The notes beneath the pieces were generated by a model. That model ran no database searches. It saw only the letters and a program-made list of their open reading frames with translations, and was not told the origin of the DNA. From NCBI GenBank assembly GCA_964492015.1, contig CAZBIH010000002.1:1-36982 (forward strand): a stretch of 36,982 nt of DNA. Reading direction: 5' to 3'. This DNA is from an uncultured Planctomycetia bacterium. Lineage in GTDB: Bacteria; Omnitrophota; Gorgyraeia; 2-02-FULL-51-18. This document shows, in pieces, positions 281-36,766 of this stretch; the stretch's first letter is position 1, and every line of letters begins with the position of its first letter. The translations under genes were made by a program, and so were the position numbers.

Positions 281-3200
281 TTACGAAGACTGCAACAACA
301 TCCTCGAGGAGGTAAAATAAGCGCGAATAGCCAGCGCAATGCTTGCGGATAAAAGGGCCGGCAGGGCAAAACGGCGCACGGCCGCCGCGTTCCCCTGGAT
401 GAAGCTGACAAATTCTTGGCGGCTCAACCTGTCACCGTAGAAACTACGGTAATATTCATAAGCCTGATCTGCGGAGGTGACCGAAAGATCCCGGCCAATC
501 CCGCCCACACGGCGTACCAGCCCCAACGCGGGCCCGAATTCAAACACGGCCGCGATCTTGGACCGCGGATCCGACTGCAGATCCTCGAGTGTAATAAAAA
601 GATCCGGCACACTCCCGCTTTCCCAGGTTTTGTGGCTCCTCAAGAAGTCCGACTTCATCGACAAATGTGTCCGCGGCGCGCCAAGATCAGGGAATTCCTG
701 CCCCTCTTCCAAGAATACGGCGTGAGCCCCCGAAAGGTCTTTGTTCATGACCCCGAGCGCTTTCCTGCGGATCCCCTCATCCCCCTCAAGCTTCACATAA
801 AGAGAAGCCATCGGCGCTCCGGCAAATCCCGCCAGCAAACTCTTAAGAGCATTGGTCTCAAGCTCCGGCACCGCGTTTTGAAAACCGTTCAGATGGAGCA
901 CAACGTTCACAGTCATAGCCTGAGACGCTTCCAATTTTTGGTCGTTGGCCTTCGCGCGTATTTCTTTCATCATAAATACAATGTCCGCCAGATCAGGCGC
1001 TGATACTTGGCTTGCACTCTCATTAACAACACGGTCTTGAACGGGAACCAGTCGGGCACGCACCTGCCGGTAGACCGCGGGTCCTTTATAAACCGTGATT
1101 TCATCACCATTTTTTTTCTTAAAACGCAAAATTACCGGCGAGTCATAAGATTTGAAGCTCATGGCAATTTCAGCGCGATCAGGAATCCCCTGTTCTTTTT
1201 CTACGCCTGAGACAAAAGCGTCAAACTTAACGTCTAGGTTAGAAGCCAACCTCGCCCCCCGAGGTTCCCTTTCCGCGAGATTCTCGACAATGAACTCAGA
1301 TGCCAGCTTCTGCCTCTGGTCTTCCGGGAATTTCTCCGAGTTGTCCCACACCACCTTGATCTCTCCGGCTATTTCGCCTATAAAACCTTCGGGGAAACCT
1401 TGAGGATATTTGGCTGCGATCGTCTCCAATCCCCTGAATGCACTCGGGGTATAAGGCCCTGCCGTTTTCGCGATGAAAAGCAAGAGATCCTCCCCAACCG
1501 CATCATGGGCTTCCTTCATTCGTTTGGCAGATCCGGCGGACAGATAAAGTTTTCCGGGACTTTTGGCCAAATGGCCCAGCGCTTTAAAAACATCGTTGGA
1601 CCCAGCGCGCTCCATCAATTCAGCTAGGAAGCCCGCTTCCAAATACGGCGAGTTAAGATCGATCAGACGGATCTGCAATACAACCGGCTCAAGATATTTA
1701 TCGGACAAGAATTCATTGCCCGCAAACATCGCTTTCATGAATCGAGAGTCAAGATATTGGCTATAACTTGGATTTCGTTTCATAAGAGCCATGAAACCGA
1801 TCAAACCCCGAAGAAAAGGGATAGAGAAGATCCTCGGCTCTTTATCCGTCTCGGGCGTCATCAGGATCTCATACAAAAATTCGGGATCCGCAAGAAAAGC
1901 GTACTCCGGCCGATCCGGCAGAGCATCCAGATACTCATAAAACAGATCCAGGATGGATGACAACAATCCTTGCATGCCAGGATCCACGGCGGGAAGGACA
2001 GGGCGAAATTTTAGAAAGATCTCTCCAGCCAACGGATGAAGAAAGCGGTTTTTAGTCTCATAATGATCGGTGCCGGAGCCAAGGAAATCCCGAATTTTGC
2101 CCTCCTCCGCTTCCCCGAGATATTGCCCCACAAAATAGGCGATCTTATCCAGGGAATTTTTAAGCGGAGGGAGATACCCATGCTGAGCATCCTGCTTGTA
2201 TCCCCAAAGAATAGAAAAAAGAATGGATGCTTCATCTTTAAGCGACTTTTTTTGCTCCAAATACTTAAAAATTTTATGAATTAAGTAAACCGCTTCATTC
2301 GTACGTCTCTCATAGAAGTACTTCCGCAAATAAGGCCGAACATCCGGCTGGTCGGCAAAAGGCAAAAGATCTCTAAAAGCTTCAAGATGCTCTTTCTGAG
2401 ATTTCTCAGTCCATGGCGTTCTTAGCACCGTCAGGTCTTTGTGAATCTGATCCTGGTTAAAATCCTCTGCTAACCTAGCCCCCTTCTCCGAAGCTTTCTT
2501 AACCAGGTCTTGAACGTATTTCACAATGAGCTCCTGCTTCTCATCCAGGGAGTGTCCATCCTCCACATGATGGATCACCCGCATTTCAACCGCGATGTTG
2601 CCAAGTTCGGCTTCGGAAAATTGATTTTCGCGCGCTTTAGTCAGATCGATCAAGGCGTCCAATACTTCCTCGGTATGAGGTCCGGCTAATTTGGCTACAT
2701 GCATCAAAAGATCAGTTCCAACGGCATCGCGAACCTCCGCCACAGCGGCTTTTGAAAGATAGATCACTAGTTCTGGAAATCTATACAATGAGTTCAGCGC
2801 CGCCGAGTTTGGGCCAACGCTTTCTAAAAATTCTGCGATCCTCTCGGGATCATCAAAATACGAGGCCTGATCGGCATGGCGTGTCGAATTAATCGCGTTC
2901 GGCAACGCCATCACGTTATAAATTGGCAGACTTGAATTGATCGCCAGAATGAACCTTCTATTAAGATAACGCGGATCAAAAACACCTCTTCTTACTGAAC
3001 CGATAAACTGCTCTAAATTTCTGAGAAAAAAGAACGACATGCCAAAATTCCTGTCCTCCGGCGACTCCTCCAAAAGCTGTTTCAAATAATCCTCGTCGAT
3101 AAGGAATTGGTATTTGGGCTGAATTTCGCCTGACTTGTCAAAAAGCAGTTCTTCTTGCTGTGAGATAGCGCCTAGATAGTCATAAAGCCCGTCTAAAAAT

Positions 3201-6200
3201 TTTAGTTCATGATCCGGTGGAAGCGCTGTGCGAATCTTTAGAAAAATTTTAACAGCGGCTTTATATAAAGGTTTTTTTAGCGTGTCCATATAGTGATGAA
3301 GCGCGCTGTTGTCCCAAAGGGATTCCAGTTCCAAAAACCCAAAAAATTTAGAAAGCTCCTCTTCTGTCGCGTTTTTCAGAAAGGGCTTCAAAATACGGGA
3401 TACCCGTCCATAGTGCTCTTTCATCAACAACATAAAGGATCCGGGAACCATAGCGATTTTCCTGTACCTGTACAAGTGATGAAGAAGGAACGGGTGACGG
3501 TTGTTATCCTGTTCAGCGCTCAATAAAAATCTTAAGAACAGTGTGTATTTTTTGTTGAGGTTGTATTGTAGAGAATACGTAGTAAGCACCTTTTGCACGT
3601 CTTTTCTATCCAGAACAGGCATCAGCCTGGCAATGTGAGTCTCCTCGAGACCGGCTGGCAATTTTGACTTTGCCAGAATTTGCTTACTCTCCTCGATCTG
3701 GGTTTCGCTCAAGCGAGCGCCCTGCCCTATTTTTCCATTTTCAATTTTCCATTTTCCATTGCCTAGCCTTGCCCCCGCCGTAAACTCGCTCATCCAATCC
3801 ACAATTATTTCCCAGCGTTTGGGATTCGCAATTTGTTCATCCTTCAACCTGTTCGAGAGGGCTTTGAGCGCCACGGCAAAATCGCCGATGACAGAAGGAG
3901 GAAATCCTGAATGATAACGCATCGTATATCGAGTCAATATTCTGTACGCTGTCGATACACGATCGCCGGTGATATTTAAAATATAACTTAGAAAATCTGT
4001 CTCCACGATTGGCCGGACCTCCTCCAGTGCCAAAGGAGTCAAGTAAGGCCCAAGATTCTGTAAAGAAGACATCACAAGTGGATCCGTATGGGTTTTGACG
4101 ATCAACTTTGCCAAAAAGTCAGGATCAACCAGTAAGGGATTGAGATTGGATTTTTGTACCTCTTTGATCGTCCTCATCACCAGCGCCACTTTCGAGGATT
4201 GCGTCCTACGAATATCTCCTTTGATTGTCCCAAGCGCCAGGAGAAAACGCGGATGAATATAACCCCGACCGATCTTCTTCAAACGCATCTCTTCCACAAG
4301 GATTCTCAGATTTCTCAAAGCCTCTCCGGAAAAATCCTCCGCGTCATAGCCTTGAGAGCGGACAACCATCTCGACAAGCACCGGATTCAAGAGCATATCT
4401 TTTTCTTGTTGGGTCAATGCCATCCGGATCTTTGTAGCTTTGCCTTGCGACAAAACAGCCTGGACGTATTGGCTTATATCCTCGAGCGCGACAGCCTCAT
4501 CCTCTTGCCTTATAAAAGGTTTGATTCTTAAAAATAATTCTCTGATCTTTTGATCCGCCTCGTCTTGCGACAGTCTCGCCCCCGCCGTTTCATCCGACAA
4601 TCCCAGCATCTCCTCCAGCCCCAGTTCCGGCAAGCGGCCGCGTTTGGCCTTGAGGAGCGCAATCTTGAGAATGATGCCCATGAGTTCTTCGGTGGTGGGC
4701 TCGTGATCCAAGTTGACGGACTTGGTAAATTGGCTCACCCCCGGAGTATTAATTCCGATGAAAACAATATCGATCCCTTTTTCATTGGCTTCCGCCAGAG
4801 ATTCAGGGCTGGCCGAGCCTTCGCCATCCGTCAGGATAATTTCGAGTTTATTTTTCTGCGTCGCCTCTTTTTCGTGCTTGCGGATAGCGCCATTCACCGC
4901 GGCCTGGATGTCCGTGCCTTCGCTGGCAAGACGCGCGCGGATATTACCGAGGGCTTGCTCGATCTTTTGTTTGTTGCGGGAGTCTTGAAATTTTAAAAAT
5001 TGATAAAAGCGGTTACCCAACCCGCCCAGAGAAAACTCGACACCTTTATTTCGCACCGCCGAATAAAAGAAAAGCGAGCTGTAAATGCGCACCATGTCCA
5101 TAAATACCTGATCCAGCCCGCCGCCGGTGCTCCCGCTGATATCGATCGTCAGGCCGATGCTGACCGACGCCAGGCCCTCGACGACATGCGTCACCTTGAA
5201 TGCCTCCGGGTCCCATTCGATGACGCGGAGCATATCCGGCTCGTCGCCTTCTTCGGCGTAGCTGTACATCACTTTGGGCGAGCCGACAAAGGCGGTGAGA
5301 AATTTATTGATGAGTCCCTGGCCGACGGATTCGAGCTCTTCGAGATCCCCATGAACATCGGTGGACGCATCTTCGGCTTTCTCCTCATCATCGTCTTTTT
5401 TATCTTCACTTCCCGATTGACCGGTCCCTATTCCTGTCTGATCAGCCTGAGTGAGAGGCCGTAATGGATTTTTTGTGCCTTTGGGCCTCTTTTTTCCTGT
5501 AATTCGTATGCTGCCTTTTCGAGGCCTTATGCTCCTTTTTAAAATGCTCTTCTTCTTGTCATGTTCGGGCGTGTTAATTTTTGTGGAAGAACCGCCATCG
5601 ACGTAGTCCACAATTTCAATCTCGAGATCGGAAGGACCATCCACACCTCTTAGCATTTCAGTCATATAAGCCTCGCCGCCACCTCCGGTATTGACAATTA
5701 CTTTTTTGCGATAAACCCCTTTTTTCGCCGTATAGAGAAATTTTTGCCTATATTCATAAATAATTGCGGCAATTTTTTGGATCTGTGCGTTGTTCATAGA
5801 GAGAATTTCGTCCACGATTTTTTGGATTCTGTCGTTTTCATAATTATCAGTAATAAGCTCCTTTTCTTCTGTCACGGGAACTTTTTCTTGATACCGCTTC
5901 GCAAGCAAAAGGCCGTTTAGAATACCTTTGGCGGCTTGAGTATATTCGCCTTTTTCGTCCTTATTTTTAAAAATCAGCTTTGCCAATTCATGATTAAGAT
6001 AGGCTTTGGGATCCTCCGAAAAAATAAGTGGGAAAAGCATTGAATTAAGTTCCCTGTTGGCCGGTATTTCGCGGTCACTTTTTCTTGAACGTATTTGGTC
6101 AATCATGTGACCCAATTCGTGATACGCCATCCAACTAATGAATTCTTTCCGCGAAACTCCTGGGGGAGTCTGACTTGCCGCGCTTTCAAACACCACCGCG

Positions 6201-9200
6201 TATTCTCCCTCAAAATAGGCGCTGGCGTCTTTTGAGGGGAATTCATCCCCAGGCACAACATTGGCCTGAACAAAACTATCTTTAAATTTACTCGGATCCA
6301 ACCCCAATTTTTTAAATTGATCTTCACCAAAGGAGAAAATTTGAGATATTTTCTCCGCAAGAACGATGGTATAGGCGACTTCCCCAGCCTGGGAGACCTT
6401 GACAGCCATCGGTAAGAATAGATGCACCCCATGCCGCACAAATATGCTTCGCATCTTAAACATGGCATCTCTTAGTTTATCTTCATGCACAACGGACCGG
6501 TTATAAAGCGTTGTAAAATGTACGAGTGCTTTTTCAAGATCAGGGTCCAATTTCCTCGCGGCATTGTAAACAGATTGAATGAGAGAATCTCCCCCTTGCC
6601 CATCTGCCATGACGTGCACAAAAGGCGCGAGAATTTGTCTGGCGAAGACAAGCGTAGCCTCGGGCGACGCGGCATTAAAACGATCAGCCTCTTTCTGAAT
6701 CTCGGGGATATCATAATGAATATTGACTTCGTCTGACTTCAACTCCGGAGGCCTACTGTCTTCCGGAACTTCATCTAAATCATTTAGTTCCTTTTCATAA
6801 GCATCAATATCATTGAGTCTTTTCAAAATCGTCTCAATCGAATCGCGGTGAAGCACCTCTTCCGAACCCCAGAGATCGAGCGTCCGCGGCTCCACGGGCA
6901 CATATTGCTCGCCACGGGTGACAGCCAACGGTTGAACGACAGCGGCTCTTTCTAACTCAAGAGCCTTACGGCTTTTATCAATTCCTCGGCGGTGATATTC
7001 ATAAAGGATGTCGTTTAAAGCCCAGTTCTCATAATCCATCGGGTTGGGCGGCCATAACTTGTCAGCATAGGAAACAATTTCACGGGCAAATTCTTCGCGG
7101 CCTGAGTATTTCTCCATGGGGTTGAACGTCAGCACGACCATGATCTCGTCATCCACCTCAACCTCAAAACTTTCACCGGCGTACTCCACGCTAAAACGCC
7201 TTTCTCCGCGAAAAAGCGGCATGAGCGCGTAGATCAATTCCGGCGAGGCGTTGGCTTCGTCGATCAAGAGGATCGAGCGCGACGATGTTTCCTGCCCGGG
7301 CACAAGAATGCGCTTCCAATCGGCCTCACCGGCTTTGCGGACTTTTCCGGTGCGCGCTAAAAATTCCTTGATGCCCAATTCAAACTTTCCTTCTTTTACT
7401 TTTAGGCCCGCCGTGATATCGGAAACCTTCAGATCTTCATAAGCGTTGAGCGTGTACAAAGGCACACCCCAAATACGGCTTAAATTTCGTATACCCGTGG
7501 TCTTGGCGGCGCCTGTCTCGCCGTTTTCCATCACGACGCGAGGCAAAGACACACGGCCTTTAGGATCACGCACCCGGATCCAGGACTGCAAGAGGCTTGC
7601 GAACATCCGAGCGATCTCTTCGGTGTAGCGAAGATACTCCGGTGTTGAGACTTCCGACGGGGGCAGAGCGCGCTCCTGGTTGAAAGCGTCCCGCGCCAGC
7701 GGCAGACCGCCGATAGAGTCGATGAGTTCCATTTCGATCGTGAGAGTTTCCCCGTCTTTTTTGGCGTACAGGCCTTCCGAAAGCCGGCGGCCCTTCTCAA
7801 GCGCCTCAGCGGTCATAGGATAGACAGCGCCCGGAGTGCGGATCGCGAACATCGTTTGAGCCTCGTCGTTGGTAGCGGTTTTTTCAATACGAATGCCGTT
7901 GGCCAACCCCACACTGTCGCCCTCGGCTTTTAAGCCCGACAGATCGAGAGTGACTACACGTTTGCCGGTTTGCACAAGCGCCAGGCGCTCGTGGATCGCG
8001 GCTATGGTTTCCTGATAAAAATATTTGACCTGGGTGGGCTTGGCTTTTTTCTTAAAAACCAATTCGGCTAAAAGATGATCCCGGATAATTTCCTTTTCCA
8101 CTTTCAAGCGGTCGGACTTCTCAAGCGCCTGCAGATACACCATCGCCGCGGCTTTGAGCACGTAATACAGCGGATTGGGATTTAAGGGTTTAAAATCAGC
8201 CTGTTTGTCCGTCTGAATAATTTCAGCAAGCTTGAACACTTCTCTCACGGTGAAACCATAACGGAGGCCGAATCGCTGAGTTTTGTCGTATTCGCTCACT
8301 TTTTTAGCCAGCTCCAGGATCCACTCGGCTTCACTCTCATCCACAAGCGGATAACGGTTCATCAAAAGGGTTTTGACTTCGTCAAAATCCTCAAACGCGT
8401 CGACCCGCACCGGCAGAAAACGGTTGATGAACGCCGAGGAGAATTTGTGCTCCACCGCCGAGGAGATCTGCAAGTTCACCCATTCCGGCAAAATATACTC
8501 GATCGACTCGCCTTTCTCATTCTGCAGGGTCATGCGCCGCGCCTGGAGCATCTCGCTCAAAATAATGTTGAGGATCACTCTCTGTCTTTCGGGGATGGCG
8601 TCCATGAGATTGAAAAAAAGAAGTTTCTGGGCATGGGGTTTACCTTTTTCAGTCCGGTATTCCTCCTCTGTCAGAAAATGCCTCAACATAAATCCAAGCG
8701 TCATCTGAAATTCCTTGGAAGCGGCTTCCTTGGCGACTCCATACTTGTCGAACTCTGACTCAAACTTCATCAAAACGCTCGAAACCAGATGCATCCGCGT
8801 CATCTGGGGATGTGACCACAGCGTGTGAAACTCACGGCCTGAAAGATAAGCGAATTTGCGCGCCAAGTCGTACGCATCCGCGCCCTCGGATTCCAGATAG
8901 GCTGTCGGCGCGTGAAGTGAGAGTCCGAAGGCCATCGCGCGAAGCGCGCTATTTTGCGACGGAAGCTCTTCCGGATAAGCGATATCAGTCTCGGAAACAT
9001 TGGTCACGCCTTCCGACTTTTCAAGGAGAATACCCCCGAAATCAATTTGGCCGTTTTTTTGTGAAATTTTTACGGGGCTTCTCCACCATTTCAAATGTTC
9101 TATAAAATCAACCCCAAAAATATCCGTCACCTCCAGCCACATTTTGGGGAATTCCATCCGGTCCAGACGGGAAAGATAGGCGGTCATGATCCCCGCGAAC

Positions 9201-12200
9201 AGAGCACGCTCTACTCCTTGAGCGTTATCCCCGCGCTTGACCGCCTGCATCACCGACTCGGTGACAAGGATCAGCTGGCGGGGGCTCAGCTCCGTGCGAT
9301 GCGGATGAACCTCGTTGAAACGCAGGTGAAGTTTGGCGATCCTGTCTTTCAATCCTGAATTCAACTTTTCCCCTTGCAGGGTGTAATCAATGATACGTAT
9401 CGCGTCCGCGTGTGAAAGGGCGTTGTCCGACCAGATCTTGTGCGAAAGCGTATCCGCGCCATAAGGGATCTGCTCGCGGCCGCTGATGGACCCGGCGGGA
9501 TTCTGAGTGATGCCGATATGGAAAGAGGGGTGCCGTTTTACGATCTGTCCGTGAAGCCCCGGATGAAAAGTCCCTAGATCGAATTGGTCCAGACGGCTTA
9601 AGTGGGTCAAAAACGAGATCACTTCTTGTGAATTAGCGCCGATCGCGCCCTCATCCAGAAGAAATAGGCCTCCCTCGCTGTATGCCTTTAAGAAATCCAG
9701 CGTAAAGTGCCCGTCAGCATCCTTGTCCGAGGTCAAAATAAATTTGTCGCCGCGTTTGGACAGGCGTCCTAAAAAAGTCCCTAGATCAATTTCACCGTAC
9801 ATCAGCTGGCGATAGTAGGGTTCTCCCAGACGCTTGGCGAGCTCACCAAAAGATACGGTTTTGCCGCCGCCCGGATATCCCTCGATCAAAATAGGCCGCC
9901 CGTGGCGCCAGGCGATGATCATCGCGGCGAGCTGCCGTACCAGAGTTTCGGTCGGCGCCAGAAATAATTTTTTATCGGGGATCTCCGTGTAGCGCGTATC
10001 GATGGAAATGCCGTCCACGACCAGCCGCACAACTCCGGAGACATTATTTTTGGCGTAATGAATTTGCCACGACGGATCCGCCATCGGCGCCGGGAGAATA
10101 CTCAAGCCTTTCTGGTATTCAGGCCTCAATCCGATGCCCAGGGTGTAATAAGCCACTTTATGAACGAGCGCCTCTGTTTCTGGGTTCCAATCCCGCGAAA
10201 AAACTTTTTGAGTGTTTAGTTCTGCCAAAAAGGTATCCAGATCTTTTCGGCCGAGGCGGTTGTGCTCATATTCATAGTTTTTGGCCTCTTTCTTGTAAGC
10301 TTCAAATACTTCCAGCGCGATAGCAATTAAGGGAAGTGTGAACGCGGACGGAGTCTGCGACAACTTGGCTTGAAAATACCGCTTGATCCAGGCTTCATCC
10401 AAAACATCACCGACATTGACGCTGATAAAACGGTCGATCTCAGCGGCGGAGAGCTGAGTCTTTTCGACGGCAGAGCCGGTGGCGATAAATTTAAGATTGG
10501 ACGGCGCCTGCGTATAGAACCAGCGCGCGAACTCAAGGCGTGTCGTCGGGTCCAGAAGAGCCGTTTCGGCATCATCCCCTAGAAGGCGCCCAGTTGATTT
10601 CTGGTATTCACGAGCCAAGGCTGTGAGAAATCCGGAATCTTTTTTATCCAGAATTTTTTCTATCAATGCCGAAGCGATGCCGCCGTCAATGCTTTCGGCC
10701 AGGCTTTCAAGCCGGCCTGTCTGGAAAAATTCATTCAAGAGCGGCGCCGATTGGGGATTAAGCCGCGTGTAATTGTGCAACACAACAGTGTGAGTTTTGT
10801 CCGAGGACCGCAGTCTCGCCTCCTCGATCAACTCCGGGATCATTCCAAGGCCGTGCTCGAATTGCGGCGACAGACGGTCCAGAGCCTCCCACCCTTGAGG
10901 CCGTTGCTTTTCCTGACTCTTACGCGGAGGAATAAAACCGCTGACGAATTGCCTGCGGCGATGAAAATAACTGAGCGGCACATCATGAATGACCGCCTGG
11001 GCATCTTCGCGGCTGATCAGGGAATCCAGTTTTGAGAGATCGCTTGTCGCGTTGGAGAAAACAAGAACGGGTTTCTTTTTCTTAAAAGCCCTGGAGAACG
11101 CCTGATCGGCATTGATATTCCGGGCTTCGATCCCCCCCTCTTTCAAGATCGCGTGCACCAGATTCCTGGCGCGGGCCTTGTCCTCGATCTCCTTCCACAT
11201 AAAAACATAAACTCCCTCCACCGCTTTCGCGAAAGCCGCGGGCGCGTCATCGCCGTGAGTAAGATAATATTTGAAATCTTCCAGCACGCGGATCAACTCG
11301 CGGCGGGTAATGTCTTGAGGGGAAGTAAAAAGACGGTTTTTTATTTTAGCTTTGGCTAATTGCAAGTGAAGTTTAGTAAGTATCGGCGCGAAACGCTTGC
11401 TCTGGGCGTCCAGGTCTTGTTCTTTAAAAAATCCATGAATGATCTCGGGCAGTTCGGCGGGGTCGGTGGCCATGTAATAGCGGGGAATATGCGCGGCGAT
11501 GCGGGGCGGAGTGGCTTGGCGGCCGGTAAATCCGTCGGGGTTTACCGTATACAGCCACAAATTATTCCGGTGGATCGCGGTTGAGCGGATCCCTTTGTTT
11601 TCAGGATCCAGAGGCGCAAATTCCGGCAGATACTTGAGGTTCCGGCCGGCTGTTTCGGGGAAATTCCAATAATAAAGCGAGTTGTTCTGGTTGGTGTTCA
11701 TTTCATTGTACAAAAATAAATGGCCGCCTTCTTCCAACCGCTTCAAGTACTGTGCCTCATAGAGACGGTAGCGGCCGTCCTGCGTCACACGGATGTGGCC
11801 GCGGAAATCCGCCAAGTCCGTGTCTTCGTTGATCGTATTTTCCTCGAGGCCCAAGCCCACCATGCGGGAAAAAACACGGGCAAGCTCGGTCTTGCCTTCA
11901 CCGGAGGGACCCTCGATCTGAGCCATCTGAGTACCGTATTTGAGATCACGGACAAGTTGAGAAAAAACACGTGCTTCCAGATCCGACACAACAAATCCGT
12001 ACCGGCCACGGATCAGCTCCCGGGGAGACTTTTCAGGCGAAGCTTCTACGGCTCGTTTGAAATCCTCTGACATCTTGATCCCCACGCCATCAAAAAATAT
12101 CAGATCCCCCGCGATCTCGATCTGAGGCGTGCCGGGATTTTTTCCTTTCAAAAATTCAAGCGTTTTTCTGTCTTCGGCGTTCCTCAACCGCAACCAGAGA

Positions 12201-24200: not shown

Positions 24201-27200
24201 CGTTCCACGGGAGAATTTTTCTCAAGGAGAAAAAGGTTTTCTCTGAGGCCCAGGACCGTCTGCTCCGTCAATGACTCAGTCTTTTTTTGATTCTTCAAAT
24301 AAATCAAATAATCGTCATAAACCAACCGAAACTCGCGGGTGATCTCGCCCGATGGACGAAAGATCGCGCCCATGAGAGCATTTTCTTCGAAGATCCGAAA
24401 GATCACGGGGTCCGCGGCATCGGGAGATTCGGCGGCCGCCTTATAATTCTTGGCCAATAAATGATTATAAAATTCCGCGTTGGGATCTGAATGCTCCCGC
24501 AGGACGATCATGGAGGCGAGAAAATGAGGATCAATATTCAAATGGTGTTCCTCGGTAACACGGTTAAAAGAGGCTTCTTTGGCGAGCGTAAACAGGGATT
24601 TCGAGCGGACTTCTTTGCCCCGCGCAAATAGCAGCGCCCTTGGGAACACCGACCTGTAAAAATGCCAGACAGATCCGGACGCCCAGGCGTATTTGAAAAA
24701 ACGGACTGCCCATACAATCTTCTCTTTGAATATAAAAGGTTTTCTTGAAAAATCCTTCGGAGTTTCTATTTTCGAATTCTTCGCCAGCCTCGCCGCAGCC
24801 AAAGAAAGCGGTAAAATTGACCCTTCGGAGAGCGCTGTGTTATACTTCTCCATATCAGTAGCCGGAGAGACCTGCTTATGACTAAAATTATTATTAACAG
24901 TTACATCGTCGCCGATCCCCAGATTTGTCATGGGAAACCCACGTTCAAAGGGACCCGTGTCATGGTCTGGCAAATCCTCGAATTGCTGGCCGCCGGAGAA
25001 ACTTTCCGGCAAATTCAAAGAGGATTTCCTTCTCTCACCGCCAAGCACGTGAAAGCTGCTCTCGAATACGCCAGCTCTCTCACCCGGGAGAACTTCGTCA
25101 TTGTCAATACCCACTCCCCGCTTCCTACTTGACGAAAACGTCAGGGATGAATTGGGTCCGTTTCTAGCCTCTGAGCGGTTCGATTCAAAACCATCCCCGC
25201 GCTCCACAGACGATAAAGTCATCGCCGGTATTTCCAAGAAAGAAAAAAGAGTACTCGTCACCAATGATGAGGATTTCTGCCGGTATACCCATGATGAGAT
25301 ATTTTCGGTGGTCTGGCTAAGAATTCCCCAGAATGAGCCCAACGTTCTTATCAGCTCTTTCCGAGAATTAGTCCACCACTTCAAAGATTTCGAAGGCAAG
25401 TTGATTGTGCTCACGCCCGGCAAATGGACAGATTCCAGACTAGGCGAAAGAATTAGGTTTGATTCATAGGATTTCGCCAACCGTGCTCCCGATTTAAATT
25501 CATACCCCTGAATATACTCGGCGATCTTACTCTGGCGATCATGATTTTCCATAGGCTCACGGCTCAGCCTATCGTTCAATAGAAATAGCGCGTCGTTCAA
25601 TCCCAGGATGTCAAATTCACTGATCCTGTCATCATGGCTTTTGGACAGTTGGGCAAGAGCTTCCAAAGCCGGCACAAAACTGGGGCCGGTGAGATCTAGG
25701 ACTTTTTCAAGAAATTTTGTTCCCTTGATCTCGGAAGATTTGCTGTCATTTTTGACAAAAGGTTGAAGGCGCAGCAAACTGTCGTAGACCCTGTTCGCGA
25801 CCTCATCAGAGTCAAAGTCCGGCAAAGAAAGTTCGATCTTTTCAAGCAGATCGACGGTAAGCCAGGCGGTGATATCCGCCCGCCTGGTAAAAATGGGGTT
25901 CAGCGAAGAGATCAAACGATGCAGTCCAGAAAGACTACTCCCTTTCCCGCTCACTTTGCCTTGATAAGCCGCCTTGACGACTCTCGGATCCACGAGGAGT
26001 TTCCGCTCTTTTTCGGAAAGATAATACCGTCCGCTTGGAGGATCCTGAACAAAAACGCTCTCGACATAATCGATCAGCTGATCCCAAACCCGCGTCCAAT
26101 GATCGTGCGGAGCCCGCCTCCCAAGTTTATCGGTAGAAATAAGTTCACGAAAAAGACGCCAAATGATCTCCCTTTTTTCCGGATCTACTTCCCTATCCAT
26201 GAGCAGGCGCAAAAACCGGCTCTTGGACATCGTCTTAAGATCTTGCGAACGAAGGATATCCGCCTCAAACTCCGTTTCATTGAAATGTCCAGGCAGAGAA
26301 CCCCCCTGCCAAGCCCATAAAATATCCATCGCCGCCAAGTCGACTGTATCGCTCTGCGGCAAGCGTTTAAAAAGCAAATCGGAAAAATCAATATCTTTCC
26401 AAATATCTTTATCAAATTCGACAGACCGGAACGACTTTAAAAAATCCCAATACGTTTGCTCAAACATAGACCGTCGGAGAGGCTTTAAAAGAGCCTGGAT
26501 AAAAATTTCATCAAGGTCTTTATTTTTTGAGGCTTTTAAATAATTTTTCACAAGCTCGCGGATCCGGGGATCCCTCCTATAAGGAATCAAAAGCATGGCG
26601 AGCGCGGATGTCCTGGCGGGTGGATGTGATGGGTTTTTACTTTGAAGTAAAACGTATTGCTTCGTATAAGCCAACTGTTTATCGGTTAGATATCCTTTCC
26701 TTCCGCCCTCAACCTTCGACTTGTCTTTCTTCGCCAATCTCGCCCCCGATTTAAATTCATATCCTTGGATAAACTCCGCTACCATATGCTGACGCTCATA
26801 ATTTTCCATCGGCTCGGTACTGAGCTTCTTCTCCAACGCGAAAAGCGCATCATTCAATCCCAAAATATCAAACTCTCTGATCTCTCCGTTATGGTCTTTG
26901 GAGAGTTTAATCAGAGCTCTCAGCGCCTGCAAAGAACTGGGCCCAGTGAGATCCAGGACTTTCTCAAGAAATTTTGTCCCGCGAATTTCGTCGGAAGCGC
27001 TGTCATTTTTTACGAACGGCCGGAGGCTCAGGAGGCCGTTATAAACCTCGATCTTGGCTTCATGAAGCTCAGAGGCCGGCAGAGAAAGTTCGATCTTTTC
27101 CAGAAGGCCGGCTGTCAGCCAGTTCGAAAGATCTTCTTTCTCGAGTTCCTGGATGTGCTCAATAAAATAGCGCAGCCCAAAAAGCTTATTGCTGGTCCAA

Positions 27201-30200
27201 TCCTCCCGGCTGTGATAAGCCGCCATGACAACACTTGGATCCAAGAAGATCTCCCGCTCCTTTTCCGAAAGGAAGTACCTTGCAAAATTTAATTTTGGCC
27301 CTTGCTTTCCGCCGATACTCATCTCATAATTAAAAACGAAATCAATATATTCCGTTAATTGGCGTAAAACATCCGTCCAATAGCTGTCCGGAATCCGGGT
27401 TTTAAGCTGACTATCCGAAACAAGTCCCCGAAAGAGGCTCCAAATGATCTCGCTCTTTCGCTTTTTGTCTCTTGAGGCTGTCACTTTACTCCGTAATAGC
27501 CGCAAGAAGCGGCTTTTAGACATGGTTTTGAGATCTTGCCCGCGGATGACGTCAACCTTGGGTTTCACTTCATCAAAAAATTCATCGATTACTCCGGGCC
27601 TGTGCTCATCTTTCCAAGCCCAAAGAATGTCCCGCGTGGCCAGATCTACTTTCTCATCCTGCGGTAGATGCCTTATCAGCACATCTATTGCGTTCGTGTT
27701 TAAGCTGCGCCAAATATCTCTGGTGAAGTCTAAGGTGCGTGTAATATATCGGATCAAAGTTGCTTCAAATGCTTGGCTTCTTAATTTTTTTGAAAGCGCT
27801 TGGATAAATATCTCATCTGTATTTCTATTCTCCGAGGCTTTCAAATAATCTTTCAGGAGTTTACGGATCTCAACATCCCCGCGATACGGAATCAGGAGAA
27901 TAGCAAGCACGCTATCCCTGTACGACGATTGAGATGGCCTTTTGATCTCATTGAAAAGCGCCGCTTTTACGTAAGCCAACTGATCATCCGTCAGATATCC
28001 CCTGTTTTTTCTTCTTTCCTCTTTCCTCTTCCCTCTTCCCTGCCTTTCCGCCAATCTCGCCCCCGCCGCATCCCCCAAATATTTTTTCACAAACTCAGAA
28101 GCCCTGACTTCCCTGAGCCTCGGCGACATCGACGGCAAATACTGATGAAACACCGTAAATTGCTCCAAGAGCTCCTGCTCCAGCGACTCGTTCACAAGGC
28201 CCGGATGCTGTTCGGCAAAGTCCCTCAGCATCCCCAGGCTCTCCACCGCCTGCCAGCCGGTGAACTCGATGATCTTTTCTAAAAATCGCGTGCCTCTTAT
28301 TTCAGGATAAGCGGACTCTCCAAAAACATAACGGTCCAAAAATGGCAGCCACTTCAAAATCCTGTCACTTTCCGGGGAGTACCTGCCAAAGACCTGTATC
28401 AGAAATTCTTTCCGTAAAAGATAGGAAGGATTTTTACCCGTTATATCCTCGGGCTTAAAAAATTTAAAAACTTCTACTGCTAGCCGCTCCTGGAGCCCTT
28501 CGATCAGTATCGGAAACGCTCGTGAGGGCTGCCTGTGAATGACAGAAAGAATGGACCTCATGTTATCTTCCGCGATCATGACCGCTATGTTTCCAAGGCC
28601 CAAAAGCTCCATAGAGGAGACCAGATCCAGGACTTGAGAAGCCGCTTTGATATCGATCCCGGCTCCGGCAGCCCGGAATTGCTCGCGAATGAACGCCATT
28701 TGTTCCACAAACCCGGATTTTTCAAGCGCCCTTCTTTTGGCCGATAAAAACTGCGTCACCGAATCCGCCCGGCCCGATGCCTTGAGCAGGTTTTCTAAAT
28801 TAGAAGCAGAGCCCGGCAGGAGAAGTTCGAGCTGCCAGAGGATCGGCACATCATAACTTTCAAAAATGTTTTTCGTGACACGGACTTCGGGCTCATTTTT
28901 TTCGTCATAGGCGGGCCACTGCGAGATGAGAGATCGGATATCCGCCACTGATGCTTTGGCGGACTCAAGATCTATTTGAAATGCCTGCCCCTGGGCACGG
29001 ATCGCTTTTGAAACCGTTTCAAAATACTGGGGCCCCGCGCTGCGGGCGAGCTCCGCGTAGACCGGCCAGACAGAGGGCATTTTTTCGCCCATTTCTCTTT
29101 TTAGATGCCAGAGCTGTTCGGCGAGCGCTTTCTTTTCGATCCCCGCTTGAGCCAAAAGGTGCAGATCCAGCCAGCGGCTCTTAAGCTCTTCCGGAGACCA
29201 GCCCAAAAAGAAACCGAGCGCGTCGTTCCTGGGATCCTCAGCGCGAAAAGAGGCGCTATGAAGCGCCTCCAGGAAAACGGAGGCATTAGAAGTCACTGCT
29301 TCCCGGGCAAGTACCGTGATCTTCTGGTCTCGCTCCGGATCGCCCGTTTTCAGATCACTTAAAGGTTTAGCGGCCTCGACACCAAAATCCAGGACAAGCC
29401 TCCGGTAAAAATCAAGATCTCCAAGATCTCTGTATTCACCCGGATTTTTTGTTCCCCACATCAGGGAGACAAAATATCCGATGGACTTGGTCCCTTCGAT
29501 CCGGGCAATAGCCTCTCCGGCCGTATGACGAACTTCTGGAACAGGATCCAGCAACAACGCTCTTTTTATCGCCGGCAACGTGCCGGGATCATGCGCGTCC
29601 ACAGCGCTCAGAGCTAATAGGATCTCTTGCCGGTAGGATGCAAACGTCCTTGAATATCTATCCATGATCGAAATCAGGACCGGCGCCGCGGAGGACGCCT
29701 TGTCGCCAAATCGCGCCAGGATCTGGGCAAAAGGCTGACGCGCCGGATTGGTCTCATCCGCCAGATGATGGATCAGATGCGGGATCACCTCCGGTCCGAT
29801 CTTGAACAACGCTTCCGCCGCCTCCGCTGAGGGACCCTTGGAGTCATCGCTGGCGGAAACATTGTCTTTACGCCGCACCAAATTGCACAGCTCCCAAGCA
29901 GCCTCGATCGCCTCCGGGCCCAGGAGCCCCAACTTTTGAGCCACTAATTGGCGTATCTCTATTTCCGGATCACTTAAAAGCCCGATCAACCTTTGAATTT
30001 CCTCTCCCCTCTTTCCTCTAACCTCTTCCCTGTTTTCAGCCAGTCTCGCCGCGCTATCCGCTTTCTGATTCAGTTCTGTCCAAAATTTTGACGTCAAATC
30101 CACCCGATCACCATTTGGGATCTGTTCCGCTCTCGCTAGAATCGTCAGAGCCTCTTTCAAATCTAAAATCGTCTGCTCAGAAAGCAACCTCTTCCCGTTC

Positions 30201-33200
30201 ATCACAAGAAGATAATGTTCATACATAGAGAAAGAGTTGACTTGTCCAAACTGATGCAATTGCGCAATCAACAAAAATACCTCTTTGTCCAAAACGTAAA
30301 GAGGGAGTTTTCCTTCGGCGACAGATCCGGCGATCGAAAAAATAATCTGTGTAAGATCAAAGATATAAGTCTGCCCCGTCTTGAGATAAATATCCTCCAT
30401 AAGGTCTGCTGTAAAAAATTTCTTCAGGATCTCATCCGGAAGCTTTGGATCTATTTCAAAAGCGTCTTCCATGATCCGGACTGTCGTAATAAGATCTTTC
30501 TTGGGGCCCGCTTTCATCTTTTTGATCAATTCAAAGATCACGTGCCAATAATATGAAAAAATACCCATGGCAAGAACCACTTTTACTGTTTTTGGATCGC
30601 CCTCAAAAACCCTGTAGATCTCCGCTCTTAACAATTTCATATCTGCCCGCATTAGAAGTCCGCCGCCGAGATTCCTATTTTTCTCAAAGTTGTACGCACA
30701 GAGTTCAAGCGCAAGTAGGATATATTTGGGATCGATCTTTGATCGGGCCAAAAGTTCCTGCACAAAGATCTGTTGTCCCGTTTTTTCGTAGGTATCACGC
30801 TCTATTGGGGTTGCCACGAATTGGCTTAATATTTCTCTGGCCTTAGGCTCGTCATAACGGTCCAGGAGCTTCATCGCCGCCATTTGTTGAATATCATTTG
30901 GAAGGTCCGACATATTTCCCCGGCGCATTACCTGATCGGTTGTGCGACCCATATCATATTTCAGATAATGCATGGCCATCGGACCCAACATGCCCGCCGT
31001 GGACGGGGTCTGATGAAGTTCAATAGCCAATTCAATATCATTCGGCACGTGAGTTGCCTCTTCATAGTTTTTTATCCAAAGAAGGTGAACCAGCTTCATC
31101 CGGTCATCCAGCGCCGTAGGATTCAACCGGTATATTCTCGCCAAAAGATCCGACGGAGAGAAAAGGTTCGCGACCCACGACTGATACTTGATCAAATGCT
31201 CCCAGGTCACTTGAGCCGCCACCGGCATCATTGCCGCCTCATCAAATCGCTTGTCCAACAGACGGTCATAAAATCGCGCGGTTTCATCATCCCGGCTTCT
31301 TAGTTTTAAAACTGACCGATATTGATTCAGTATCTTGGGTACATCTAATGTTACACCTTGAATAATGTCCCCCATTAGACGCTCTAAAGACTTGTTTTGT
31401 GATTCGGAGTGGACCTTCCAATAGGCAAAAGGACCGCCGCTTCTCTCAACAGTCCACACAAAGCGCATAAACTCAACCACATAGATAAAAATCTTTACCG
31501 GAAGCAGACGCTGACCCAAACCATCCGGCAACATCGCCCGATAAATTAATTTCAACAGGCCAGCCGTTTCTCGCAAGCTTCGTTTTTCCTCTTTCCTCTC
31601 CCCTCTATCCTCTACCCCGCTTTTAGCCAATCTCGCCCCCATTTCACCTTGAGCCTTAGAAAGAAGCTCCGCCATAAATTGCGCGACCCTCTCATATCTC
31701 TGCGGTGGTTCGTATTGATCCGCCAATAGCGCTATCGCTTCTTTGAGCTCCATGACGACCCGTTGGGTCAGCTTGTCTTGGCTCTTTAGGGCCCGCACAT
31801 AATCAAAATAATTTTTAAAAAGATCTCCCACCATGAGATGAGCCCGAGTATTTTTAACGATCAGGTTAATAAGCTCAGTGTCTAGAACATAACTTTCAAG
31901 CTTTTCTTTTTTCACATCTTCAGCTACTTGAATGCCTATCAAAAGAAAATCAGCTGCGAAGTTCCCTGATTGTTTTGATATTGTGTCAACAACATCAGGA
32001 CTCAAAAATGTCAGATCCAGACCTTTCAGTCTGGCATCGACCAATCTCCATCCAAGCTTGATAAGAATGCCGCCGATAAATCCCCTCCGATCCGCCTGGT
32101 TCTCACGATTCTTAAGGATCAACTCTGACAGTACAGGGTAGTTTTTATCGTCTACAAATCGAAGCTGTTGGCGGATAAATTCAGGATCTGCGCTAACCCA
32201 AGAGGGATCCGTGGACTTCTGAATCATTCCAGCCATTGCGTCACGGTTGTTAAAAATCATCCTCCCTGAATCACCGCGAGCCAAAATACTCGAAGTGGAA
32301 TTTTGATTGATGTGCATCCGGATGTGAAAATATAGAGTCAACAAAAGCGGCAGATACTGATCGTCCGCCGCCACGAGCCTTATTAAGTGAGAAACAAATC
32401 CATTCCTTTCCGCATAGCTTTTCATCTCTGGAAAATAATCTCGCTCAATAAATCGAGCTAGCGCTTCGGCGACTCCCGGCTCCGCGACATGATCCAAAAG
32501 CTTGATGGCCGCGGCTTGAGTAACCTCGGTCGAAATTCTCATCGGTTTGGTCCGTCCGATCCCATACCCAGATTTTATTTTCTCAAGTACCTCCAACGCC
32601 GCCTCTTTGTCCATTTTTTGGATGAAAAAGTCGACAGTTCGTCCCCCTCCGTCCGTTTTAAACAATTCTTGAGCATATTGCCACGCGCCCGGCACCTGAT
32701 CGGCGGAATCATAATCTGCCTTGTCGAGAAAATAATAAAACTTTGCCTTGTCGCTGACTTGATCCGGCTGTTTCTTCATCAGGACATCCATTAATCTCCT
32801 AGAGACCTTGATCAACTTTTCCGATGAAGAGTTTTCAATCGCTTCGATGAACATCGCGCTTGCCCAACGTCCGGCGTCCTCAAATCGCGTGGCCTGTCCC
32901 CACCGGCCTTGATACGCCAAATAATAAAACTGAGCCTCCGCATCCTGCCTGCGTCTCAGGATCTCAGCCGCCGCCATCGATCCGTCCGTGGTCAAAAATA
33001 AGACCTTTCCTGATTCCAGTTTTTTCCTGAGAATCTGACTCCTGAACTGTCCGGGTTTTAAATAGACACCCAAAGCGGCCTTTAAAAGCAGAAAAGGCTC
33101 TTCTTCGCCGAACAAATTATCCTCGATCATCCAAAACACATCTTTAAGGTCCGCAAATGAGTAAAAATAAAGATGCGTCCAGTACCGCGGCAAATACCTG

Positions 33201-36200
33201 AAAAATATCCCGATTTTCTGCAGGGTCGACAAGCCTCTAACCTCTTCCCCGCCCTTCGCCAGCCGCGCCCCCTGTCCAAAGTTGTATTCGCTCAGGTACT
33301 CCGCAATCCTCTCCTGCCGTCTGGCGTCTTCCCAATGAGCGTCCCGAAGCGTTCCATCTAGAAGAAACAACGCATCATTCAAACCCAGGAGATCATGTTC
33401 TGTCATTCCATTCGGCCGCTTGGCTAAGATAGCCTTCAACGCAGTGAACGCCCGCGCAGCAAACGGACCTGTCATTTTCAACACAGTTTCCAAAAAGCGA
33501 GTTCCGTGGATCTCCTTTGTCGATGCGTCAGGATTCATATAGCGTCCGAGCTCCCACAACGCAGCGTAAACTCCTTTTTTTGCCTCATCATTCTGAGGAC
33601 TCGGCAAGGTGGTTTCGATCGCGATTAAAAGTTCCGGTGACAATCGCTCAATCATCATTCTTTGCTCTTGAGTCTGGATGTCCTTTCCGAGAGTTGAGTG
33701 AATAAATTTCTCTATTGAATCCAGCGGGTATCCCGAACCATTGTCGGAATGCAAATAAATGCTTTGTAGCACCGCTGAGTTTAACGCCAGAAGAGTTTCC
33801 TTTTGGGACAACTCTCTGGTTAGCGCATTATGTGCCGCAAACCGTTCCGAAAAAATAGCAGTAAGATAATGCGTTAGCTGGAGGAGGAGCGCCGCATGAT
33901 CCGCCGATCCAAATTTATTTTTGATCTTCGGATCCGTGGTGATTTGCTGATACGTGTTCCTGATCCACTTCACATGCCATGGAAGACGCCCGGATGTGAT
34001 CACAAGCTGTCTGGAAATAATAGAATCAGGCACAGAATCGATACCCGATGACTGAAGAGAATGCCCCAGAATTGCCAACACTTTTGTTTCAAAGGGAACA
34101 TTAGTTTCTCGATATTCGTAGCCCGCTTTGTACGCGAGAACCCATAGCAGTTCTCTTGCGACTTTATCCAGACCCCGTCGCCGATTCTGATGCGCACGCC
34201 ACAAATCCAGAGAGATCGGTGCTGCCAGCCGGAACGCACCGCTATTTACAATAAAATGTTCGGCATTATCCATTAGATTTTTAGCCCATTTGGGACCTAG
34301 TAGAGTCGAAGCGAAATGCGTATCACTTCCCCACTTAATCAAATGATAACGAAGCGCGTCCGCCACGAAGGTCAAGTGCCGATAGGGAAAAAGAAGGCTT
34401 GCCGCCGCCGAAGACTCGTTGGATCTTTTCTCATGATTCCATCCTTGCGTGGGATCTGTAATTTGTTTGATCAAATTCTTTATTGCAAGCTCGTTCAAAA
34501 ATTCTTTTTTCTCTTTTTCCTCCTCTTCCTTTCGCCCTCCGTCTTCCGTCTTCGGCCTGCTTTTCTTTGCCAACCTCGCCGCACTCACTGCCGCCTTCCA
34601 ATCCATCCCCGCAATATCCCGAACAAACATATCCCGGTTCCCCAGCGTGTCCGTGGCGATCTGGCGGATCATGAGAGAGCTTACGGCTGAAGGCGCCGGC
34701 GCAGACCCGGAGCTTATTCTCTGTCTCAACAAAAGTTCCTCATAACGGCGCGTGTTCGTTTCTTCAAGGATCTGCGGCACGATCGAGATGTAGGAAATAT
34801 TTTTAGACTTAAGGATCGATTTCAAATTCGGCGCGTGATAACCGCCGGTGATCAGCACGGCTTTCTCTTCAATTTTCAATTTTCCATTTTCCATTTCAAA
34901 AAGCATATTCTGTACAAATTTTTTGTCCCTCTCATAGGTGAGCGAATAAAATTCCTCACAGAGCTCCGCGATATCGTTATAACCGGGCTCCAAAAATACC
35001 GCCTGCCCGTAGAATTCCTTCAGGTCCATGATCTTGCGGTTCAAAAATCCAGTGATCCTCTTCATGTCGTATTTTGTTTTTTGGCTGCGGTAGGTTTCGA
35101 AATCAGCCGGTGTCATTCGCAGGCTCAAAAGATCCCCGAGAGCCCGAATATTTTTATCCGCCTGGACCAGAGCCTCTTCGTCCGGCGTCTGAACAAGAGC
35201 TCCAAAAACTTCCTCTTCAAGCGATCTCTGCTCCGCCAGCACGCGGACAGGAGAAAAAGCCTGGGCCTTTTTGAGATAGCGCAGATATTTGAAAAGTTCG
35301 GGATACCGCGCCTGAGAGGCTGTTCCGGCAAGCTTTTCTTCCAAGAGACAAAAATAGGCCTGCCGTACACAATTATTTTTACCGGACATTTTTTCAGGGT
35401 CCCTTTCCGCGCCGGAAACAGATCCAAGATCTTTCCTATCCGTGGCAGACAGCGCCGCGACAGCTTGAACCTGCTCTTCATTGGCCCGGTTAAAATCAAT
35501 GCGTCTTTCAAGATCCGACAACTGTTTGGAGTGTTTTAAGTGGGTGTATTTTTCTGTCTTAAGCTTGAGCATTTCTGCCATGCGGTACAAGGCTTCGGTA
35601 TATTCCGCCGCGGACAATTGGCCCTGCCTGAATTTTTTCGTCTGCTTATCGAGCGATAGGAGAACGGGGTTTTCAATACGCGGTTTTAGGATCTCGATTC
35701 CGTGAGCGGCCTTGGCGAGATAATTTTTAAAGCGCTCCCTGTTCTTGGCAACTTGCCGGTAAACGGACAATGCCTTTTCGTAGAGTGCCGGATCTTCCAC
35801 ACCCCAAAGCGTAAGCGGCAGATCGGAGGTCAGGTCGAGATACTCACTGCCCTGCAGCTCGCCTTTCATCAGATAAGACCTGGCGACTGTTTTCCTTTTT
35901 TCAGGACTTGCCAACGCCCTCAGGAAAAACAACGAAAGATCGCCTGAACCACCTTCTAAAAAAACAGAAGCTGTCTTTCCCTCCCCCCTCTTCCCCCTAT
36001 CCTCTTCCCTGAATAAATAGTCAAGGGTCTTCGCCACATTCAATTGCCCAGAAATATTCGTATGAGCATCCTGGATTAGAACAACGGTTTTAGAAATATT
36101 CGGCGCACGGTAGGCGTCTTCGATAGAGGCGATAGACTTGGGTAAATTGGGAAGTTCCCGGCGTGCCCAGCTCTTGGCATCGGCGTCAGAATTCCAACGG

Positions 36201-36688: not shown

Positions 36689-36766
36689 TGGTCGGGATGC
36701 AGGGATTTGAACCCTGGACCTCCTGGTCCCGAACCAGGCGCGCTAGCCAAGCTGCGCTACATCCCG
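36689..36766 (-). tRNA. tRNA-Pro (anticodon CGG), CCA encoded
   Basis: Reverse complement reads CGGGATGTAGCGCAGCTTGGCTAGCGCGCCTGGTTCGGGACCAGGAGGTCCAGGGTTCAAATCCCTGCATCCCGACCA. It has acceptor CGGGATG/CATCCCG, D arm GCGC/GCGC, anticodon stem CCTGG/CCAGG with loop TTCGGGA, and T arm CAGGG-TTCAAAT-CCCTG. Length 78 nt. Confidence 0.93.

Follow-up and report, generated by a model that had tools for sequence, protein, structure and literature searches.

The stretch of DNA analysed here (the window: 36,982 nt of contig CAZBIH010000002.1, assembly GCA_964492015.1, placed by its GTDB lineage in the Omnitrophota) contains a single open reading frame (ORF), which occupies positions 281..36280 of the reverse (-) strand, starts with TTG and encodes a giant protein of 11,999 amino acids (aa) in which a pentapeptide of the type [GA]ARL[ASG] recurs at the borders between modules. 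All features described below lie on this strand, and their positions are given in window coordinates. The first 20 aa of the protein (...IAFA|TSE; 36221..36280) form a signal peptide or anchor of the Sec type, a feature also found in its homologues, and this is the only strongly hydrophobic segment of the chain. It is followed by a head domain which we call M01 (aa 21-522; 34715..36220), with an alpha/beta core and a long helical insertion. When the complete chain of 11,999 aa was scanned with Pfam, the matches were limited to HEAT repeats in three modules, AAA_5, the midasin AAA lid, VWA and a weak AAA_16. Cysteine is very scarce (7 of 11,999 residues, none beyond aa 5624). The giant gene is flanked on the same strand by two tRNA genes, tRNA-Val(CAC) a short way downstream (64-140) and tRNA-Pro(CGG) about 400 nt upstream (36689-36766).

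The motif [GA]ARL[ASG] occurs 20 times in the protein, always in frame, compared with about 0.23 copies expected from the protein's own composition. As ARL[ASG] is found 21 times and [GA]ARL 20 times, almost all tetrapeptides made of ARL plus a small residue belong to the motif. A preliminary description of this DNA had listed these 20 copies, and every plus-strand coordinate given there proved exact and in the frame of the giant ORF. Sixteen copies directly follow a helical tail of about 105 aa that is common to all of them. Numbered from the N-terminus of the protein, these are J02 (GARLA, aa 1004; 33257..33271; tail 33272-33580), J03 (GARLA, aa 1548; 31625..31639; tail 31640-31951), J04 (AARLA, aa 2077; 30038..30052; tail 30053-30358), J05 (GARLA, aa 2740; 28049..28063; tail 28064-28366), J06 (GARLA, aa 3179; 26732..26746; tail 26747-27055), J07 (GARLA, aa 3598; 25475..25489; tail 25490-25798, i.e. 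aa 3495-3597), J09 (GARLA, aa 4044; 24137..24151; tail 24152-24466), J10 (GARLS, aa 4710; 22139..22153; tail 22154-22468), J11 (GARLS, aa 5174; 20747..20761; tail 20762-21073), J12 (GARLA, aa 5576; 19541..19555; tail 19556-19852), J13 (GARLS, aa 6246; 17531..17545; tail 17546-17860), J14 (GARLS, aa 6795; 15884..15898; tail 15899-16222), J15 (GARLA, aa 7322; 14303..14317; tail 14318-14632), J17 (GARLG, aa 10836; 3761..3775; tail 3776-4078), J19 (GARLA, aa 11267; 2468..2482; tail 2483-2794) and J20 (GARLA, aa 11675; 1244..1258; tail 1259-1567). The other four copies lack the tail: J01 (AARLA, aa 567; 34568..34582) follows M01, J08 (AARLA, aa 3829) lies at 24782..24796, J16 (GARLS, aa 10567; 4568..4582) comes shortly after a VWA domain, and J18 (GARLS, aa 10854; 3707..3721) is separated from J17 only by the 13-aa insert NGKWKIENGKIGQ (3722..3760).

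The motif copies delimit the modules of the protein precisely. When the 21 segments between them (M01 to M21) were compared with each other by BLASTP, every alignment stopped exactly at a motif, and four paralogue families emerged: M02/06/07/12; M03/04/14/15 (with M09 as a partial member); M05/10/13; and M17/19/20. A hidden Markov model (HMM) of the tail gave 16 matches in the protein, each ending at a motif, and only the A-R-L columns are invariant within the tail alignment. The preliminary description had stated that the motif always ends a conserved helical tail and is usually followed by a charged linker. The former is true for 16 of 20 copies, but J01, J08, J16 and J18 follow unrelated sequence; the latter was overstated, as only 6 junctions have strongly charged sequence immediately behind the motif. 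A word-indexed search with the tail profile returned no matches, and an exhaustive HMMER search found only 17 matching proteins among 1.84 billion representatives (P0010-P0026), mostly by way of a helical repeat (about 38 aa, consensus EVLDVELLxRIAEASGExxxxAFxALxELGxGVxxGKV) that is arranged in tandem, with up to 41 copies per protein, and is the counterpart of the first half of the tail.

The linkers after J03, J04, J05, J10, J13 and J14 are encoded by very purine-rich DNA (e.g. 22094-22138, 17486-17530 and 15839-15883), which translates into EDRGER-, KIENGK- or EEVRG-like peptides. Those after J10, J13 and J14 have about 33 near-identical nucleotides in common despite belonging to different module families. 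A similar purine-rich stretch, REEDRGKRGEGK, is inserted in M01 (35975-36010), where the related protein P0032 has 'RIEDRGLRIEE...SSILNP' at the same site, and homologues contain hairpin repeats translated in frame, of the 'VIARS..TKQS...IASS..RND' type. Taken together, the near-identical linkers across module families, the insertion in M01 and the translated hairpins suggest that the linkers have been colonised by small repeat elements.

The surroundings of the motif were modelled with AlphaFold2 for one construct, consisting of a tail, J06, the following module and J07. Both tails are predicted as confident helical bundles, with predicted local distance difference test (pLDDT) scores of 80-90. 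The last tail helix stops 6-7 residues ahead of the motif at both junctions, and J06, J07 and the linkers after them have pLDDT values of 27-38, i.e. they are modelled as disordered. Foldseek searches with the model returned non-significant matches only, with designed helical repeats on top. The run-up from M01 to J01 (aa 523-566; 34583..34714) is likely disordered as well, since most of it has low pLDDT (mean values of 47, 50, 42, 34 and 38 for consecutive 10-residue blocks; <50 at 524-531 and 545-566); between these two stretches, at 532-545, a helix is weakly predicted.

The same motif is abundant in other proteins that start with M01. We collected 78 M01-headed ORFs (173,923 aa in total, more than 20 of them complete), all from loci retrieved via M01, and found 269 copies of the strict motif against 3.95 expected, an enrichment of about 70-fold; the relaxed pattern xxR[LM][ASG] occurs 410 times, compared with 58 +/- 5 in shuffled sequences. 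Relatives in the M01-headed family thus conserve the motif. It tolerates little variation: position 1 is far more often G than A, A occupies position 2, Lys never takes the place of Arg, L or M stands at position 4, and at position 5 A is more frequent than S and S more frequent than G. Its flanks carry about 0 bits of information, except for a weak preference for S or A at -1. M01 is the only part that the 78 ORFs share with the window protein, all other modules being unrelated, and the motif is therefore independent of the fold that it borders on. Pfam domains recognised in the other ORFs (HEAT, UDPGP, PGM_PMM_I, PP-binding) are likewise positioned between motifs. The position of the first junction is also constrained: in 65 of 74 ORFs it lies 40-220 aa past the GGxH motif of M01 (6.4 expected), at a median distance of 94 aa (interquartile range 81-107). 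Other ORFs at the M01 loci (six-frame translation, at least 150 aa) hold 31 copies in 234,377 aa, 19 of which belong to four giant ORFs nearby that the locus edge cuts short. Some lineages use variants of the motif, e.g. GARMA together with GARAA at locus L044, GARAA at L027, and forms of the V/S-R-M-A type in one genome. The more distant relatives to which the tail profile led have A-x-S-L-G or G-A-S-L-G at comparable boundaries, including those after WD40, methyltransferase-like and VWA domains.

M01 itself defines a large family, with 22 homologues in the protein database and 162 matches in GTDB genomes, nearly all of them metagenome-assembled genomes (MAGs) of Omnitrophota. Many of the M01-bearing MAGs carry the title 'uncultured Planctomycetia bacterium'; the family otherwise belongs to Omnitrophota, and in our view these titles are mislabelled. 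M01-headed genes are present in multiple copies: several of the MAGs have at least 5-7 each, and some of the genes stand in tandem with other giant ORFs (loci L002-L079). The residues that are invariant in M01 include QDAHTN..GQ, E109 and GGxH. QDAH, E109 and GGxH are located at strand ends, an arrangement which resembles, in pattern only, the paired strand-GxxH motifs and conserved Glu of the TIKI/TraB/GumN/ChaN/erythromycin-esterase superfamily. The idea that M01 might belong to this superfamily received no support from profile searches or Foldseek. Nevertheless, the invariant Asp, His, Glu and His suggest that M01 is an enzyme, and as it is also the sole constant partner of the motif, we regard it as a candidate, though a weak one, for the protein that reads or cuts the motif. 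Among the M01 proteins, P0027 has the order M01-AARLA-insert-GARLA-Ser/Thr kinase, and P0028 (701 aa) consists of M01 followed by GARLA. The ORF after P0028 (>3,100 aa) overlaps it by 28 nt, and that after P0027 (>6,400 aa) encodes Laminin_G_3, PGM, FHA, GT5 and ROK domains; these pairs may be single giant genes split by frameshifts, or separate genes. Genes for a PhoB-like regulator, PhoU and a histidine kinase are found upstream at 5-7 loci.

The longest unit without a motif in the window protein extends from J15 to J16 (aa 7327-10566, about 3,240 aa; 4583..14302) and comprises a midasin-like AAA core, a region with an HExxH sequence and a VWA domain with a metal ion-dependent adhesion site (MIDAS). 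The Pfam scan recognised AAA_5 (dynein-related) in two stretches (E 5.8e-20, best match at 7106..7522), the midasin AAA lid (PF17867, AAA_lid_7; E 9e-8; 8072..8380) and VWA (E 1.8e-8; aa 10378-10515; 4736..5149) with the MIDAS motif DISGS at aa 10380. AAA_5 and the lid are located around aa 9300-9725. Walker A motifs are present at aa 8124 and 8801, and the six modules of a midasin-type core were not individually resolved. The HExxH sequence is HELGH at aa 10054 (6107..6121). The unit as a whole is homologous to stand-alone Omnitrophota proteins of 4-5 kaa annotated as 'AAA family ATPase', and outside the Omnitrophota its best matches are fungal midasins. J15 and J16 are also the limits of the homology with the stand-alone orthologues, of which P0003 and P0002 continue for another 20-50 aa past the J16 position; thus the two motifs bracket a unit that is autonomous elsewhere. 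At the position homologous to J15 the nearest relative, P0005, has GTRLS. We also noticed a relaxed copy, TVRLS (aa 7627; 13388-13402), 300 aa inside this otherwise motif-free unit, which may be a degenerate or an extra junction.

The C-terminal module M21 (aa 11680-11999; 284..1243) has no relatives detectable among the proteins fetched, and BLASTP gave no support for a homology between M21 and the C-termini of the '...AQAA' type in the SLG-type relatives. M03, M09 and M15 start, after J02, J08 and J14 (~33180-33250, 24700-24760 and 15800-15860), with the aromatic, amphipathic sequences WWWKVKFFFRWWKQ, IVWAVRFFKYAW and IGIFFRYLPRYW, which could form membrane-interacting helices.

What kind of signal the motif represents can be narrowed down from these data. 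If the signal resided in the nucleic acid, the 15 nt would be an RNA element or a target for recombination or insertion (with target-site duplications left by small mobile hairpin elements), and the peptide would be a by-product. The codons of the motif are indeed skewed, in the window towards GGG GCG AGR TTR (GGG at 14 of 17 sites, binomial p ~7e-7; AGR at 16 of 20, p ~5e-5) and in other genomes towards GGC GCG CGG YTG GCG with Arg mostly encoded by CGG; several motif pairs enclose inserts of hairpin-like DNA that are translated in frame and whose inverted repeats have arms of up to 17 nt; and the shared linker DNA at three window junctions would fit as well. However, all synonymous codons occur in the motif, Arg changes between the AGR and CGN families across genomes, the alternatives at position 5 (Ala, Ser, Gly) are alike in chemistry rather than in nucleotides, and the nucleotide pattern is confined to the coding frame of the coding strand. 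Furthermore, motif pairs around short inserts (38 of 293 gaps between motifs are <=60 aa) are no more alike in their DNA (10.8 of 15 nt identical) than random copies that encode the same residues (10.7 of 15), and a target-site duplication was on this ground rejected as the origin of the pairs; J17 and J18 differ in codon at almost all synonymous sites. The evidence therefore favours selection on the peptide, and a DNA-level signal appears highly improbable; gene conversion and translation kinetics are possible causes of the codon skew. A 2A-like ribosome-skipping peptide was also considered and judged unlikely, by our own reasoning, as only 5 residues are conserved and none upstream. It is also very improbable that the motif has no function of its own and merely marks where one duplicated helical repeat fold ends, passed on with each copy of that fold. 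This would agree with the 16 of 20 window copies that close a homologous tail and with the resemblance of its first half to the 38-aa repeat of related giants, but not with the four copies lacking a tail, the 269 copies that stand between unrelated modules elsewhere, the position of the motif outside the predicted fold, or the restriction of invariance to the motif columns of the tail alignment. With its five to six residues, its strict chemistry, its independence of fold, its place in disordered linkers and its one copy per module, this short element has the properties of a short linear recognition motif. The view taken in the preliminary description, that the motif marks junctions regardless of module family in the manner of a recognition site, is thus supported, and we consider it very probable that some form of recognition acts on the motif at the level of the peptide.

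Such a site could be bound or cut. That it is an uncleaved docking or tethering site, by which a common partner (M01, a chaperone, a secretion component or a surface or prey receptor) organises or exports the modules, is possible and constitutes the main rival to processing: disordered linkers, independence of fold, strict Arg and Leu/Met and one motif per module are equally expected of a docking site, and the Sec-type signal peptides make an export or assembly factor plausible. On the other hand, the motif pairs around short, meaningless-looking inserts are more easily understood as sites of excision than as duplicated docking sites, and no candidate binding domain or neighbouring gene recurs. 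The preliminary description had proposed partners within the protein itself, namely that the HExxH region cleaves the polyprotein at GARLA during its maturation, or that the motif is latched onto by the MIDAS/AAA core. HExxH is a sequence used by metalloproteases, and HELGH does lie between the AAA core and the VWA domain of the window protein. However, P0001-P0004 and P0018 (4,000-5,000 aa), which have the same core behind another head, contain no copy of the junction motif; P0001-P0004 have none even with the relaxed pattern, and the only regular-expression matches in P0018, DAASLG and GASLAG, are not at module boundaries but within a helical repeat and within the core. The HExxH region is nonetheless conserved in P0001, P0003 and P0018. 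Conversely, no homologue of the AAA/HExxH/VWA unit was found in the 78 motif-bearing ORFs. The motif and HExxH consequently do not co-occur across the family, and the same missing co-occurrence applies to the MIDAS/AAA core as a docking partner. The proposal of an in-cis HExxH protease is largely refuted by this distribution, and a role of either part of the core in reading the motif is very unlikely.

The reading that we favour is that the motif is an endoproteolytic processing site of a polyprotein, to which we would give a probability of roughly 0.5. Four observations speak for processing: the units between motifs match autonomous proteins, short inserts are bracketed by two motifs, the first site lies at a set distance from M01, and there is a parallel with the MARTX toxins (see below). 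In such a system [S/A]-G-A-R-[L/M]-[A/S/G] would act as a short linear recognition motif in flexible linkers between autonomous modules; the window protein is one member of a large, phylum-restricted family of Omnitrophota giants with a signal peptide and M01 in first place. Cleavage of the 12-kaa precursor would yield about 20 pieces: M01, the helical modules, the C-terminal modules and a midasin-like AAA-VWA machine of 3.2 kaa that stays uncut. Short junk inserts flanked by two sites would be excised. By analogy with MARTX, the scissile bond probably adjoins the Leu/Met, with the small residue at P1'. That the motif is read by a protein, that cleavage is the outcome and which protease is responsible are all points which we infer only.

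Several observations weigh against processing, or against the part of M01 in it. No recognisable protease domain is tied to the motif, and M01 has no significant match in Pfam (E<=10), in NCBIfam, in PDB profile searches with the full-length domain or its core only, or in Foldseek searches of the PDB. No neighbouring protease or exporter gene recurs at the 78 M01 loci, the best case being the PhoB-like regulator at 7 of 78. A binding function without cleavage fits the same sequence statistics, the Arg at the putative P2 position is at odds with the small-Leu-small consensus of MARTX, and codon usage inside the motif is non-random and genome-specific. P0020 has SLG-type junctions behind a transmembrane segment and no M01, and as our loci were found through M01, the counts speak to the occurrence of the motif behind M01 and not to the presence of M01 wherever the motif occurs. 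A more far-reaching version of the processing reading would be a cellular polyprotein system of the Omnitrophota, with dozens of secreted M01-headed precursors per genome. M01 would then be a new family of N-terminal autoproteases which frees itself about 94 aa downstream and subsequently cuts each G-A-R-[L/M]|A, releasing enzymes, helical scaffolds and even the complete midasin-like AAA-MIDAS machine, which might serve as effectors in prey or host cells. We regard this full scenario as speculative and on balance improbable.

Omnitrophota encode the longest known proteins, with up to ~147,000 aa, and it is explicitly an open question in the field whether these act as single chains or are cut; post-translational cleavage has already been suspected there. 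According to West-Roberts et al., no cleavage points are known for these giants, and C39 or S8 peptidases are proposed as the cutting enzymes. Word searches in the searched text of the papers on giant proteins (West-Roberts et al.; Seymour et al.; a 2026 preprint) found no description of a junction motif or a polyprotein, and no literature was found that combines Omnitrophota with 'polyprotein'; M01, being our own label, cannot be searched by name. These checks agree with the remark in the preliminary description that no family with this motif logic has been described. G-A-R-L-A is thus the first concrete candidate for the long-suspected cut or recognition sites of Omnitrophota giants. It provides precise boundaries for semi-specific peptide searches in metaproteomes and allows the rational splitting of giants for structure prediction and expression, and the combination of signal peptide, M01 and a first junction at a set distance is a signature by which a large unannotated gene family can be recognised. 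If cleavage does take place, it would represent a rare case of a large-scale polyprotein strategy in cells rather than in viruses or single toxins.

The window protein resembles the Omnitrophota giants described so far (Archaeovorin and the dockerin-type, 'multi-enzyme' and tandem-repeat proteins) in phylum, extreme length, signal peptide and mixture of enzymes with HEAT repeats. However, those proteins have many transmembrane helices, compared with one N-terminal hydrophobic segment in the window protein, and Pfam detected no dockerin, TSP3, C39, S8 or SecA-like domains in the latter. With midasin/Rea1 and the bacterial AAA_5-VWA (MoxR-like) proteins it shares AAA_5, the midasin lid and a C-terminal VWA/MIDAS on one chain, but this likeness covers only one bead (aa 7327-10566) and not the junction motif. 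Viral polyproteins likewise combine many units in one ORF and have a short invariant junction peptide whatever the neighbours, and M01, which is N-terminal with the first site ~94 aa further on, is reminiscent of viral leader-type proteases; here, in contrast, we deal with a cellular gene family with Sec signal peptides, and no protease fold was identified in M01. A further parallel in the arrangement is found among bacterial toxins. MARTX and large clostridial toxins, which have an internal cysteine protease domain, are likewise secreted bacterial proteins of very large size in which autonomous effector modules follow one another. In MARTX toxins a protease within the same polypeptide cuts at several sites per molecule, at Leu residues that have small neighbours (small-Leu-small consensus) and lie in unstructured stretches between the effectors (PMC2900308). 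The window motif similarly centres on Leu/Met plus a small residue, lies in low-pLDDT linkers and occurs once per module. It differs in being longer and stricter, with an invariant Arg at the putative P2 position, and cleavage is established for MARTX but putative here. RTX repeats and the InsP6-activated cysteine protease domain of MARTX toxins (Peptidase C80/CPD) are absent from the Pfam scan of the window protein, the Omnitrophota family is multi-copy per genome within one phylum, and the two systems have no sequence homology. The motif system, as a putative processing system, is therefore analogous to that of MARTX toxins, not homologous.

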